NCBI GenBank assembly: GCA_031409655.1
Contig: JANNXQ010000195.1
Location: 1-64,000 of the forward strand
DNA: 64,000 bases
From: Chthoniobacteraceae bacterium
Lineage (GTDB): Bacteria > Verrucomicrobiota > Verrucomicrobiia > Chthoniobacterales > Chthoniobacteraceae
Direction: 5' to 3'
A program made the position numbers and the translations under genes. Position 1 is the first letter of the stretch; each line of letters opens with the position of its first letter. Below are positions 3-4,502 of this stretch, one piece after another. Under the pieces are notes generated by a model, which searched no databases, was not told the DNA's origin, and saw nothing but the letters and a program-made list of their open reading frames with translations.

Positions 3-866
3 GACGCGCCCACCCCGGCCAACCTCCCGTTCCTCTTCCACCCGTCCTACGCCATCCCCCCCGCCGACCTCCGCAAATCCATCCTCACCCTCGCCGTCCA
101 AGGCAAACTCGTCCCCCAAGACCCCAACGACGAACCGGCGGCCCGAGTTCTTGAACGCATTGATGCTGCGCCGAAACGTGCAATGCGGACGAGGGTCACG
201 GACGAAGAAGAGGGCGCCGAACCGACCGAGCTCGAACCTGTGTTCGAGCTACCTCCTAGCTGGGAGTGGGCACCGTTCCGAAGACTGCCGTTGCAAGCCT
301 CCGTCGGAATTGACCGAGGACGTTCCATGCAAGGGCCAGACAAGGCGGTTGGTTACTTCAAGATGAACAACATTCGGAACTCAGGCGGAGTCGATCTCTC
401 CGACCTTACCCGAATCGACGCGACGCCCGATGAAGTCGAAGCGTTCGCGCTGGCCGATGGGGATTTCTTGTTCAACACGAGAAACAGCAGAGAACTGGTT
501 GGTAAGACATGTGTGTTTCGCGCCCCGTCCGACGACCCCGTTCTCTACAACAACAACATCCTCCGTGTCCGATTCATCGAAGGATTCTCTCCAGACTTTC
601 TCGACTTCTGGTTTCGCAGCCCGGAAGGGAGCGCAGAACTTGAGAAGCTGAAATCCAACACGACGAACGTGTGCGCCATCTACCAAGGAAAACTCTCAGG
701 CTTTCCGTGCGTCATCCCACCCCTCGCCGAACAACGCCGGATCGTGGCCAAAGTGGAGCAACTGATGGCCTTGGTGGACGCGTTGGAAACGCAGCTCGCC
801 GCCTCCCGCGCCACCGCCGCGAACCTCCTCTCCGCCCTCGTCGCCGAACTCACGACCAAGGATTGA
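3..866 (+). CDS. hsdS: Type I restriction-modification specificity subunit (5'-truncated by the window edge)
   Basis: Frame is open from position 3. It reads LRKSILTLAVQGKLVPQDPNDEPA (central conserved region), FELPPSWEW, a TRD, and the C-terminal IPPLAEQRRIVAKVEQLMALVDALE. Confidence 0.93.
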   Translation, partial: DAPTPANLPFLFHPSYAIPPADLRKSILTLAVQGKLVPQDPNDEPAARVLERIDAAPKRAMRTRVTDEEEGAEPTELEPVFELPPSWEWAPFRRLPLQASVGIDRGRSMQGPDKAVGYFKMNNIRNSGGVDLSDLTRIDATPDEVEAFALADGDFLFNTRNSRELVGKTCVFRAPSDDPVLYNNNILRVRFIEGFSPDFLDFWFRSPEGSAELEKLKSNTTNVCAIYQGKLSGFPCVIPPLAEQRRIVAKVEQLMALVDALETQLAASRATAANLLSALVAELTTKD

Positions 867-869
867 CCC

Positions 870-1979
870 ATGCCACCGCTGATATTTGACCCGGAAGCCA
901 CCGTCGAAGAAATCGCCGGCATCGGCCGCCACGCCGCCTTTGATGCCGTCCTCGACGACAAAGATGACGACACGATCCAAGTGGTCTGCCGACGCGCCGA
1001 CGGCACGGAGATTCCCTTGGCCAATCCGGCCCGCGCCTTCTACTTCGGCGACCGCATTCTCTACACGGAAGAGTCGAAGCGCTACGACCTCGGCGAGAAG
1101 CAGCAAATCCTCAACACCGACACCTTCAACCGCAACGAGCGCCGGTTCGACGAACTCAAACGCGCCTGCCAGCGAGGTTTCGTGATTCCCTTCATCGGCG
1201 CGGGCATGTCGAAGAGCGCCGGATGTCCCGAGTGGAAGGAATACCTGCTCAATCTCTGCCCCGAGGCCGGATTCGACCAGGACGCCATGCGCCAGCGCCT
1301 CGAAGACCTGGGCGATTACGAAGGCGTGATGCACGATCTCGTCACCAAGCTCGGCGAGCCGCGCTTCAACCTCGATTTCGAGCGGGACTTCAACCCGCCG
1401 GGCGATTTTTCCGGTGCAGTGATGCGTCTGCCCGACCTGTTCGACAGTTGCGCCATCACCACCAATTTCGACCGCGTGCTGGAGAAAGCCTACGATAAGA
1501 GCGGCAAGGCCTTCGTCGAAAAGACCACCGGACGCGCACCCACGGGATCAATCAACGCGTTCTACCGTGCGATACCGGCTGGCGACCGCCACCTGCTCAA
1601 GCTGCATGGCAATCTGACCAACGTCGAAGAGCGCGTGCTGAACAAAGCCGAATACGACGACGCCTACGGCAACGACGGCAACATCCACTTTGAGCGCCCC
1701 GTGCCGAAGCTGCTGAAACGGCTCTACACCAGCTTCAGCTTCCTCTTTCTCGGCTGCAGCCTGAGCTTTGATCGCACCATCCAGACCTTCACCAAGATCG
1801 CCCAAGACGTCGGAGCCGACTCTCTCCCGCATCACTACGCCATCCTCGCCTGCCCGAGTGATCCCGACCGGAAAGCCAAACTCGAACAGCGCCTCGCCGA
1901 CGCGCACATCTCCGCCATCTGGTTTCCCGAAGGCGAGTATGAGCACATCGACCAGATGCTGGAACTCCTGCTCGCCTGA
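870..1979 (+). CDS. SIR2-family (SIR2_2-like) putative NADase, defence-associated
   Basis: Motifs VIPFIGAGMS, ITTNFD, LLKLHG and FLFLGCSL; about 85-aa unassigned N-terminal region; starts 3 nt after the hsdS stop. Confidence 0.88.
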   Translation: MPPLIFDPEATVEEIAGIGRHAAFDAVLDDKDDDTIQVVCRRADGTEIPLANPARAFYFGDRILYTEESKRYDLGEKQQILNTDTFNRNERRFDELKRACQRGFVIPFIGAGMSKSAGCPEWKEYLLNLCPEAGFDQDAMRQRLEDLGDYEGVMHDLVTKLGEPRFNLDFERDFNPPGDFSGAVMRLPDLFDSCAITTNFDRVLEKAYDKSGKAFVEKTTGRAPTGSINAFYRAIPAGDRHLLKLHGNLTNVEERVLNKAEYDDAYGNDGNIHFERPVPKLLKRLYTSFSFLFLGCSLSFDRTIQTFTKIAQDVGADSLPHHYAILACPSDPDRKAKLEQRLADAHISAIWFPEGEYEHIDQMLELLLA

Positions 1980-2057
1980 ACCTCGGTCTGACCGATCAGC
2001 CCAAGCAGGCGCTCATCATCTACACCGAGAGCGGCGGCCAGGGACGAGCGGGGGATG

Positions 2058-2125
2058 TCGAATGACGAATTCGGAATGACGATCGGGCTGAACTTTGAAA
2101 TTCGGACTTCTGCATTCGCACTTCG
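2058..2125. repeat. Degenerate 7-nt periodic inverted repeat (CGAATGA-type)
   Basis: cgaatga-cgaattc-ggaatga-cga ... ttcggac-ttctgca-ttcgcac-ttcg. Confidence 0.55.
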
Positions 2126-2218
2126 CCTGCCACCTTTCCACAGCCGCTCAGGCCGGGGAACGACATCCCGCTTGACTGAGAACCGGGCCTTGCGGCACGA
2201 ACGAAGGCGGATCACTTT

Positions 2219-2842
2219 ATGCCCGATGAAACTCCGCACCGACCTGCTGAAATTCGCGACGCCCGAGGAGGCGATGAAGGAGGGGCTGGCGCAGAATCAC
2301 CGCTACAAGCCCGAGCCGCTTTTCTCGCAAACTGGGACTGGGAGTCTGTCGTCGGCCACAACCGAGGAATGTGCGCAAGAGGAGGCGCGCAGCACGGAGC
2401 GAATTCAGAAAGCACTGCGCGAGTCGCAGCAGAGTGGGGCGGACGGCACGCCGTAGAGACCACGCTGGGCGAGACGCTCGACTATCTGCGTGGCTGCCAC
2501 CGGGCGGCACCGTTTCTCTTTTTCAACGGTAATACTTTCGCGGACATTGGGCGGACCTTCAGCGATTATCTTTTTGCCGAACTCCCGACGACGCGCCGCC
2601 GGCAGGCGACTTCCGCCGTCGCCCACTACATCGCAGGCGTGCTGGATCGGGAAGCCATGGCGGCGATCCTGACTGAACTCTGCCAAGCGGCGTCCTTTCA
2701 GGCTGGTGATCGCGTGAAGACCTTGCGCGGTTCGCTGCGGGGGACGATCACCCGAGTCCTGGAGGACGGTCGTGTGGCCGTGCGCGCGGATGGCAGCGCG
2801 AGTGAACTGCTTTGCCTCCCGGAAAGTCTCCCGCCCGATTGA
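2219..2842 (+). CDS. Degenerate Fic/Doc-like protein with C-terminal KOW/SH3-like domain (true start uncertain)
   Basis: APFLFFNGNT aligns without gaps to the Fic motif HPFxDGNGRT. C-terminus FQAGDRVKTLRGSLRGTITRV is KOW/SH3-like. Codons become GC3-rich after about 2456. Confidence 0.55.
   Translation: MPDETPHRPAEIRDARGGDEGGAGAESPLQARAAFLANWDWESVVGHNRGMCARGGAQHGANSESTARVAAEWGGRHAVETTLGETLDYLRGCHRAAPFLFFNGNTFADIGRTFSDYLFAELPTTRRRQATSAVAHYIAGVLDREAMAAILTELCQAASFQAGDRVKTLRGSLRGTITRVLEDGRVAVRADGSASELLCLPESLPPD
2226..2456 (+). CDS. 76-aa protein nested in the +1 frame of the Fic-like ORF (candidate antitoxin/partner)
   Basis: ATG 2226 to TAG 2456, MKLRTDLLKFATPEEAMKEGLAQ...; by hand count about 59 of 76 codons end in G/C, versus about half in the overlapping long frame. 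Confidence 0.6.
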   Translation: MKLRTDLLKFATPEEAMKEGLAQNHRYKPEPLFSQTGTGSLSSATTEECAQEEARSTERIQKALRESQQSGADGTP

Positions 2843-3042
2843 GTGAGGGTTTTCGCCGCCGCGAGCGCGGGATTTTTCGCCCTCCGAACTCGGATGCGAG
2901 GCAAGGCCGTCGACAGGCGTGGTCCCGGGCGGAAGTGCCGGGGTGGGGCGGATTCGCAGAATGCGAGGGGGATTCTGCAAAATGAGAGAAAGGCCGGGAC
3001 GAACGGGTGCCTGATAAGGGGGATTTGCTGGGGATGGGGGAG

Positions 3043-3060
3043 TTGGCACGGGTCCAGCTA
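3043..3060 (+). promoter_or_regulatory. Putative sigma-54 (-24/-12) promoter
   Basis: TTGGCACGGGTCCAGCTA has GG-N10-GC spacing and a perfect TGGCACG; about 80 nt upstream of the FN3 gene. Confidence 0.5.
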
Positions 3061-3137
3061 TGGACTGCGGAATCTTTGCACCCCGGCGTGTGCCGGGGAT
3101 CTGCGAAGGTTTTAAACCAAACCGAAACTAACCGACG

Positions 3138-3857
3138 ATGATCCGACCAACCGCCGTATGGGGGAAGAGCACTTGGAATTCACCAAGTGCCTACTGGTCA
3201 GGACCAAAGCCGGTAAAGAAAGGAGCAACGAAAGTGGGAAAAATAGCCACATATACATCGGGTCTTACTCCGGCTGAAAAATGCCTTCGTGGGGAGACCA
3301 TCTACACGCTCAGTCTGAACAATCAGAAATTGCCGGGCAATGGTCCGGCGCTGACGGAATTCAAGGCCGCCAATACGAAATTGACGGCGGCCTGTGCCAA
3401 GGTGGAGGTCTTGCGCGAGCGATTGGCCGACGCCGTCACTGATCGCGATGAGACGGAAGCGGCATGGGATGTGCAAATCACCTCCCTGGCCGGCGTGACC
3501 TACGGGATCGCGAACGGTGACCCTGCCGTCTATGAAAGCGCGGGCTTTGGCAGCACGCGTCCACCGACCCCGCCGCAGCCGCTGGAAGCGCCGCAGAATC
3601 TGACGGTGCAGACCAATGGCTCGCCGGGCGTGAGCAAGGTGAAGTGGAAGAACGATCCGGAGGCGGATTCGTATCTCATCCAATGCAGCCTGGACCCGAC
3701 CTCGCCGGCAAACTGGGGTCCATCCATGCCGACGGTGAAGGCCTCCTTTGAGGCGACCGGTGGCGAACCGGGGAAGGTGTGCTGGTTCCGCGTGTGCGGA
3801 GTGAATGCGCTGGGGCAGGGGCCCTGGAGCGAGCCGGCGCGGCGCCCGGTAATGTGA
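3138..3857 (+). CDS. Helical/coiled-coil N-terminal region plus C-terminal fibronectin type III domain protein
   Basis: EAPQNLTV...VKW...SYLIQ...WFRVCGVNALGQGPWSEP is an FN3 signature; no signal peptide. Confidence 0.8.
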   Translation: MIRPTAVWGKSTWNSPSAYWSGPKPVKKGATKVGKIATYTSGLTPAEKCLRGETIYTLSLNNQKLPGNGPALTEFKAANTKLTAACAKVEVLRERLADAVTDRDETEAAWDVQITSLAGVTYGIANGDPAVYESAGFGSTRPPTPPQPLEAPQNLTVQTNGSPGVSKVKWKNDPEADSYLIQCSLDPTSPANWGPSMPTVKASFEATGGEPGKVCWFRVCGVNALGQGPWSEPARRPVM

Positions 3858-3863
3858 CTGCCA

Positions 3864-4038
3864 AAAGTTGAGAGTTGAGAGCTGAGTGTTGAGAGCCGGT
3901 GATCGCGCTCTTAACACTCACTCTCAGCCCTCGGCTTCTTTACTGACCGATCGTTTCTAAAAGATAAGTCACCTTTCCCAGCGGCCCGCACATCGTCACC
4001 CGCGCGGCTCTCAACCATCAACGCTCCACTCTCAACTT
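3864..4038. repeat. 7-nt periodic repeat element (AGAGTTG / CTCTCAA arms)
   Basis: aaagttg-agagttg-agagctg-agtgttg-agagccg (3864-3898), with complementary runs at 3908-3936 and 4008-4038. Confidence 0.8.
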
Positions 4039-4049
4039 CCCCTCCTCCC

Positions 4050-4484
4050 ATGCCTTTCAACCCTAACCTGCCCATAGACGAGACGCTCTGCGATGCGGGG
4101 CAGATGCGTGATCAACTCAATAGTCTGAATAGTAAGATAGAAGCCATCCCGGCGGGACCGCCGGGGCCGGTGGGACCGCAAGGTCCGCAGGGGGATCCGG
4201 GGCCGCAGGGTGACGCGGGACCGGAAGGGCCGATGGGGCCGGAAGGTGCGCAGGGGCCGCAAGGCGAGCCGGGGCCGGCGGGTGGTCCGCCGGGACCGGA
4301 AGGTCCGCAAGGTCCGCCGGGCGAGGTGACGCTGGCGCAACTGGAGGAGGCGATCGCGGGGACGGCGCTGAACCCGAGCGGGGTGGGGCCATATACCGGG
4401 ACTTTCAGCGATCCGCCGACGCAGGCGGAGATGCAGGATTTCGCCGGCTATGTGGAAACGCTGCGGGTGACGCTGGTGCGATAG
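4050..4484 (+). CDS. Small collagen-like protein
   Basis: About 19 Gly-X-Y triplets with one interruption, flanked by short amphipathic helices; no signal peptide. Confidence 0.88.
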
Positions 4485-4502
4485 GGGCGGGCGCCTGGGT
4501 GC

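Follow-up and report, generated by a model that had tools for sequence, protein, structure and literature searches.

The described systems closest to the locus reported here are Phd-Doc of P1, a type II toxin-antitoxin (TA) system with a toxin of the Fido fold, and the class I, II and III Fic toxins with an inhibitory helix (VbhT-VbhA, FicT-FicA). According to the excerpts of PMC5651007, Fic proteins carry the motif HPFx(D/E)GNGRxxR with a catalytic His, a Lys in place of the second Gly of the motif makes Doc a kinase, and published overlaps of Fic toxin and antitoxin genes measure 1 to 15 bp, compared with 231 bp here. A parallel for the gene arrangement is Thermus rnpA/rpmH, in which a small gene is nested out of frame, the two starts lie a few nucleotides apart and the outer gene is N-terminally extended; the excerpted account calls it the only bacterial case of its kind described by then, in 2022 (PMC9841429).

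The window analysed is a stretch of 64,000 nucleotides from a Chthoniobacteraceae bacterium (contig JANNXQ010000195.1), and Table 1 lists the features considered. We consider it probable (about 0.6) that the locus is a type II-like TA cassette of an undescribed Doc-related family, with the antitoxin gene wholly inside the toxin gene in the +1 frame. As in Thermus rnpA/rpmH, the inner gene is fully nested, the out-of-frame starts are a few nucleotides apart and the outer gene is extended. Unlike that pair, which in the excerpted account shares one Shine-Dalgarno (SD) site as well as one mRNA, the promoter here points at the inner start, binding between the two products is predicted, and both genes have relatives that do not overlap.

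Table 1. Features of the nested locus and its upstream region (window coordinates; aa, residues of the encoded protein)
Feature	Positions	Strand	Remarks
Type I R-M specificity subunit, 3' part	3..866	+	Context; upstream of SIR2-like gene
SIR2-like gene	870..1979	+	Pfam SIR2_2, E 1.4e-24; co-oriented, possible read-through source
Putative -35 hexamer, sigma70-type	2190..2195	+	TTG at -36..-34 from short ATG; same element upstream of tandem small genes
SD-like purine run	2203..2210	+	8 nt before long ATG; weak candidate
-10 hexamer	2213..2218	+	Putative; 17 nt after -35
Long ORF	2219..2842	+	207 aa; candidate toxin, with a Doc-like Fic fold between an N-terminal extension and a KOW/Tudor-like domain
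N-terminal extension of long ORF, aa 1-26	2219..2296	+	Stops purged, sequence not conserved, dictated by short frame; absent from tandem relatives
Short ORF	2226..2456	+	76 aa, +1 frame, wholly nested in long ORF; candidate antitoxin
Short-protein core, aa 14-48	2265..2369	+	Homologous to separate upstream gene of tandem relatives and to tail of Cas3 fusions
Doc-like helical domain, aa 34-157	2318..2689	+	Predicted model and fold search
Degenerate Fic/Doc motif loop, aa 94-106	2498..2536	+	Ala replaces catalytic His, with a conserved His three positions before it; P-F-x-x-x is followed by N-G-N
KOW/Tudor/SH3-like beta barrel, aa 157-207	2687..2839	+	KOW/Tudor domains matched by VIA-align at Z 7-8.5; most tandem relatives lack it

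A preliminary description of this DNA had noted two overlapping open frames with ATGs at 2219 and 2226. These coordinates were reproduced, and its GC3 counts were recovered exactly: 59/76 codons for the short ORF (28 of the first 31) and, for the long ORF, 40/79 codons in the overlap and 92/128 beyond it. In the source genome the open short frame reaches further upstream, as far as an ATG at 2055; this extension is not conserved. Three explanations had been offered, namely a small antitoxin dual-coded over a Fic-like toxin, a -1 shift at a CCG-CTT-TTC stretch (located at 2316-2324) and a later start of the long ORF at ATG 2369.

The locus was compared with 80 relatives from one-per-species genomes (81 loci in total). 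The short ORF could be placed by motif in 74 loci; the other seven gave no motif match, some being partial or at contig ends and some carrying indels. The short ORF was intact, at 75 to 87 codons, in 73 of the 74 Verrucomicrobia loci and frameshifted in one. Of the 74 long frames, 55 were full length and 17 were broken, while two ran into a contig end. Avoidance of long-frame stops was assessed at those short-frame codons where a synonymous T would create such a stop (53 loci, non-redundant at 90%). Among short codons 2-23, T was used at 2 of 283 stop-risk sites, where 25 to 42 were expected, and at 105 of 544 non-risk sites; the control values were 107/715 in the single-coding part and 20,899/234,348 genome-wide. 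Over the same codons the third frame contained a stop in 50 of the 53 loci, and the long frame in two.

Selection on the two frames changed along the locus. In 41 colinear loci, pN/pS over long codons 4-25 was 0.46 in the short frame and 1.6 in the long frame; over codons 26-50 the values were 0.34 and 1.0, with long-frame synonymous change down to 0.18 (compared with 0.74 downstream), and over codons 51-77 they were 0.87 and 0.54. Past the overlap the long frame had a pN/pS of 0.30; the loci share kinship, and P values and significance levels overstate. This switch suggests that the first 26 residues of the long protein are kept open but free in sequence, that the middle serves both proteins and that the short tail is largely dictated by the long frame. 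Mean amino acid identity in the extension region was 43% in the long frame and 63% in the short frame. Judging from this pattern, the locus is almost certainly a case of conserved dual coding with both frames under selection.

That one frame only is a gene and the other a shadow, or that the long ORF starts late at ATG 2369, is hardly credible. Gene callers do annotate one frame at a time, and neither protein has a family match, but tandem relatives encode a homologue of each frame as a gene of its own. Met is found at the position of ATG 2369 in just one of 53 loci, and the long frame has invariant residues upstream of that position.

A long-frame ATG lies 7 or 4 nt upstream of the short ATG in 68 of 74 loci. 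It is at -7 in 56; 12 of the other 18 have an ATG at -4, in the same frame, as does none of the 56. Judged by these comparisons, the ATG at -7/-4 is clearly the start codon of the long frame. The possibility that it is a promoter element was also considered and was rejected: a start codon at -7/-4 accompanies 54 of 61 nested but 2 of 67 tandem promoters, an ATG follows the -10 box in none of 41 leaderless-type promoters of the source genome, and the ATG at -4 is compensating. SD matches of at least 4 nt were present in 22 of 61 nested and 3 of 67 tandem promoters, a difference to which kinship and, in tandem loci, an extended -10-like G pair are confounders. Genome-wide, SD-like 4-mers formed only a shallow peak in the source genome, and a crude pattern search for its 16S 3' end gave no convincing match. 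Two nested loci, L205 and L041, have a stop at the expected place of the long ATG; in L205 the long frame is otherwise open, with no evident start.

A programmed -1 frameshift at U_UUC (2321-2324), within the stretch singled out in the preliminary description, would join the short N-terminus to the Doc-like domain. The T before TTC/TTT is nearly invariant, and in-frame fusions of both proteins exist in relatives. In addition, five of 74 loci have a stop within the first 40 long-frame codons and a largely intact remainder, as a leaky shift might allow, although we read them as probable recent toxin knock-outs sparing the inner gene. Such a shift is nevertheless very improbable: long-frame stops are purged upstream of the site, from about codon 8, a start codon is kept at -7 or, in compensation, at -4, and the same T is needed for the invariant Phe35 of the long frame. 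No conserved downstream structure that could stimulate a shift was found (consensus energy -1.3 kcal/mol), nor was conserved RNA structure supported as the cause of the nucleotide conservation.

The long protein had 1500 database homologues, the best 120 of which were mostly 207-213 aa long at 99-100% coverage; named homologues were almost all from Verrucomicrobiota. Distant members obtained by profile search are about 130 aa long and have neither the extension nor the barrel. No family match to the long or the short protein was found in Pfam, NCBIfam or PADLOC, and the Pfam Fic profile did not match the window protein or 21 distant members at E up to 1. Sequence searches of the PDB gave a weak Tudor match and chance matches only. 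Matches to the KOW domain took up the fold searches with the full-length protein, and a separate model was therefore made of the helical domain (residues 27-157, pLDDT 97.5). The best VIA-align match of this model was P1 Doc (3dd7; Z 7.3, below the tool's caution level; rmsd 4.0; 114 aligned), with Doc residue 1 aligning near long residue 34. Fifteen of the 19 top VIA-align rows are Fic/Doc by title, and the other four are Bep1, BepA, AnkX and AvrB, which we take to be Fido-fold proteins. The top three Foldseek rows were Doc (E 0.5-1.3), and Fic was found in 45% of the members of an Atlas neighbour cluster. The long product is accordingly predicted to adopt a Doc-like Fic (Fido) fold, with scores that are middling and a ranking that is consistent.

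The catalytic motif has been altered throughout the family. At the position of the catalytic His (register inferred from the pattern), Ala is present in 109 of 120 family sequences and Ser, Asn, Gln or another residue in the rest; none has His. A His three residues before this position is found in 116 of 120 and NGN replaces NGR in 118 of 120, while the acidic residue and the Arg of the Fic motif are also replaced family-wide. The likeness to P1 Phd-Doc lies in the best fold match of the helical domain, the small upstream partner gene of the tandem form and a minimal domain of about 125 aa. Unlike P1 Doc, the long protein is without the catalytic His, appears to have Gly rather than Lys at the kinase position and carries an extra KOW/Tudor-like domain. 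The long product is a candidate toxin; with the catalytic His lost, it would be expected to act through altered chemistry (involving conserved Cys, His or Asn) or through binding, and not by standard AMPylation or phosphorylation. In two nested loci, L067 (~4001-4492) and L071 (~1192-1683), the long ORF ends at 163 aa without the KOW-like domain, adjoining cas4 and cas1. In another relative (P0238) the Doc-like domain stands behind a GntR-type helix-turn-helix.

A profile search with the short protein found 2687 database homologues, and the Atlas gave no usable match. Its core aligned with the upstream gene of tandem loci over 35 columns (hhalign probability 97%, E 7.3e-11). A profile built from tandem sequences only recovered the nested ORF in the source genome (E 5.2e-8), where the small domain occurs only at the window locus. 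Neither the short protein nor a tandem homologue matched any Pfam, NCBIfam or Atlas entry, antitoxins of the Phd/YefM family with their DNA-binding domain included, and the (S/T)xxxE(G/N) inhibitory motif was not conserved in the short-protein alignments examined. One relative (P0299, 148 aa) consists of two tandem copies of the nested-type small protein.

Modelling of the long and short proteins as a complex, also suggested in the preliminary description, gave a score of 0.88, compared with 0.00 for the best control; runs agreed in at least 86% of contacts and the partner had a pLDDT of at least 72. Among solved pairs 116 of 157 attain the mark used for this score, and among mismatched pairs 2 of 215 do; the mark is roughly applicable since own alignments were used. 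In the model the short protein is predicted to wrap the Doc-like protein and touch its motif loop, the interface including long residues 91-105. Such a contact is a likeness to class I, II and III Fic toxins, and a candidate inhibitor supplied in trans (in tandem and nested loci) or fused N-terminally (L196, L201) is a likeness to classes I and II. Unlike the inhibitory-helix Fic toxins, however, the small protein has no (S/T)xxxE(G/N) motif and the active site is degenerate; unlike Phd, the partner has no recognisable DNA-binding domain and its gene is nested out of frame. As the catalytic-motif, Phd and inhibitory-helix features are absent, the pair is not placed in the Phd-Doc or class I Fic families.

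Of 401 genomes sampled from the class, 71 carried the family, and no relative was found in 13 candidate stretches of viral contigs. Among 206 loci with a Doc-like match (a redundant set), the script labelled 102 as tandem, 89 as nested and six as partnerless, and nine had too little upstream DNA. On inspection, the 102 'tandem' loci include one frameshifted nested locus and two Cas3 fusions (leaving about 99 tandem), and the 89 'nested' loci include two in-frame fusions. The small gene accompanies the Doc-like gene in 191 of these 206 redundant loci. In tandem loci the Doc-like gene directly follows a small gene of mostly 57-69 aa, which usually has the same type of leaderless promoter. In L196 and L201 (P0220, P0207) the small domain is fused in frame N-terminal to the Doc-like domain, as in class II Fic. 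The small domain also forms the C-terminus of Cas3 in L189, L192 and four further proteins (P0295-P0298; 910-947 aa, helicase and C-terminal HD), and in L189 and L192 the Doc-like gene directly follows the Cas3 fusion. Comparison of these architectures shows that relatives encode the two proteins in adjacent but separate genes or in fused form. No small partner was detected upstream of the Doc-like genes L087, L190 and L193, two of which fall in a separate subclade. The loci L007 and L051, labelled Bifidobacteriaceae, are typical nested loci; probably the labels are wrong or the bins mixed.

The same DNA encodes short residues 33-48 and long residues 35-49, and each stretch resembles its own separately encoded counterpart. 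All 55 nested rows grouped together in a first quick tree (support 89). In a more careful tree the nested toxins form one side of a branch with 100/100 support and a stem of 1.38 changes per site. That tree, made from 64 of 121 rows (those dropped being eight of protein or long-branch type, 13 tandem near-duplicates and roughly two thirds of the nested set), is unrooted with no usable outgroup, and the overlap itself could bias its grouping. The direction from tandem to nested is favoured, because tandem toxins start where Doc starts and the non-nested forms are more varied; the alternative is un-nesting by duplication. A tandem antitoxin-toxin pair may thus have telescoped once, leaving some 15 codons in use by the two ancestral proteins together. 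The tail of the antitoxin would then be a new overprint on the toxin, and the first 26-33 residues of the toxin a new overprint on the antitoxin.

As a consensus promoter scan of 1900-3200 made no call, even for the box at 2213..2218, assignment of the promoter rests on conservation; the -10 box of the source genome is a poor match to the consensus. Upstream sequences share just TTG at -36..-34 (T 53, T 62 and G 47 of 73 loci), A at -12 (62 of 73), T at -8 (67 of 73) and ATG. The spacing of -35, 17 nt and -10 is equally conserved in nested and tandem loci, and it keeps a constant distance from the short ATG but not from the long ATG. Transcription from sigma70 promoters starts 6-8 nt downstream of the -10 box. 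From this geometry a start at about 2225-2226 is predicted, giving an mRNA that is leaderless for the short ORF and does not contain ATG 2219, so that the long ORF would need a longer transcript. We infer that the cassette promoter yields a leaderless, antitoxin-only mRNA, and this is the least certain step. In the source genome (G000), promoter-like motifs peak 6-10 nt before first ATGs, which suggests that leaderless mRNAs are common. The spacer at 1980-2218 has short, imperfect repeated and self-complementary words around 2059-2125.

In the mechanism proposed, antitoxin alone would be made from the leaderless mRNA, whereas toxin would be translated only from a longer read-through mRNA of the host operon (here hsd-SIR2, often a cas operon). 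Every toxin mRNA would then also encode the antitoxin, which would stay in excess. The antitoxin-only promoter has a counterpart in the toxin-first operon mqsRA, where antitoxin transcription is uncoupled from that of the toxin by its own promoters (excerpts of PMC6918082); there, mqsR and mqsA are adjacent and not nested, and the proteins are unrelated to those described here. The upstream gene had the same orientation at 43 of 58 nested loci, compared with 17 of 33 tandem loci (P 0.039, from crude ORF calls and kin loci). It was divergent in 15 of 58 nested loci, several with an intact long ORF, so read-through from a neighbour is not the whole answer. A second conserved upstream promoter was not enriched (12/58 compared with 10/58), and no terminator-like site was found in 1900-3200. 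The RNA data came from one metatranscriptome (0.05 of words), in which a relative was represented by two contig pieces over 2297-2410; these gave no information on strand, start or level.

Both proteins might instead be made from one mRNA, with two AUGs competing at a shared initiation site and the promoter-like motif vestigial or misread. The start codons are 7 or 4 nt apart, the 4-nt form having the spacing given for Thermus in the excerpted account, SD-like runs lie upstream in a subset of loci, and intact long ORFs occur behind divergent genes. This arrangement is nonetheless improbable, as the promoter geometry fixed to the short ATG is kept in nested and tandem loci alike and offers no space for a start upstream of ATG 2219.

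Breakage of the long frame in 17 of 74 loci, against one of 74 for the short frame, fits the asymmetry that would be expected for a toxin and its antidote. Dual coding and binding could also be real in a system that is not a TA, in which the Doc-like long product would be a pseudo-enzyme or would have a regulatory role, perhaps as a CRISPR accessory factor, with the small protein as its subunit. Replacement of the catalytic His, acidic residue and Arg of the Fic motif across the family would suit such a role, as would the position of the cassette between cas genes and a KOW/Tudor-like domain suggestive of binding to nucleic acid, RNA polymerase or the ribosome. We regard this as unlikely, since the patchy distribution (71/401 genomes), the variable neighbours and the breakage counts fit a toxin, and a non-toxic pair gives no reason for a promoter favouring the small gene alone. 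Taken together, the preliminary idea of a small antitoxin dual-coded over a Fic-like toxin stands firmly as regards dual coding and is moderately favoured as regards the TA role. That description made no mention of the putative internal leaderless promoter, of tandem and fused relatives, of the lost catalytic His or of the link to cas operons. The R-M/SIR2 neighbourhood, which had been cited for a defence or TA role, is not a conserved context: neighbours vary among relatives, PIN and AbiEii genes among them. For the SIR2-like gene itself, the best PADLOC matches were the ThsA and LmuA models.

A cas gene was found within about 1.7 kb, always co-oriented, at 16 of 58 non-redundant nested loci and at none of 38 tandem loci; these counts are a lower bound, and the cas queries were taken from the nested loci themselves. 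The cassette often lies between cas9, cas12b, cas7 or cas4 and downstream cas genes. It is possible, though doubtful, that the pair acts as a protein-based guard of defence operons, with the small domain as a portable antidote tag. On Cas3 the tag would tie survival to an intact Cas3; nested between type I, II or V cas genes, the cassette would supply constant antidote from the leaderless mRNA and toxin only upon transcription of the operon. In this case a single set of 15 codons would have come to hold two pre-existing, mutually binding proteins, while their ancestral tandem arrangement survives. CreTA/CrePA, TA systems inside cas loci that have been proposed as safeguards, use as antidote CreA, a crRNA-like RNA (excerpts of PMC12737573). 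Placement among cas genes is alike, but the antidote candidate here is a protein, fused in one lineage to the Cas3 C-terminus, and could point to a protein-based TA safeguard of CRISPR-Cas.

Long conserved same-strand overlaps are rare in bacteria, and annotation pipelines call just one of the two genes at such loci. As both overlapping proteins have separately encoded homologues, the origin and cost of the overlap can be tested across tandem, fused and nested forms. The locus may also be seen as a natural counterpart of the toxin entanglement designed in synthetic biology, in which relE was engineered inside ilvA (excerpts of 10.1101/2023.02.27.530340). In both a toxin shares DNA with another gene across frames; relE and ilvA are not a cognate TA pair. 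A long/short pair from genes within genes of Synechocystis, with a TA-like effect, belongs to a different protein system (excerpts of 10.64898/2025.12.20.695498). A literature search returned no report of the family and none describing an out-of-frame antitoxin nested in this way or an antitoxin fused to Cas3, and supplements of TA and CRISPR surveys could list the family. The findings point to an unannotated Doc-related family with a new active-site pattern.

Elsewhere in the source genome, contig C279 carries a cas locus (cas3, cas4-cas1, cas2). Downstream of the cassette in the window are a fibronectin-type-III-like ORF (3138-3857) and a collagen-repeat ORF (4050-4484), followed by his genes.
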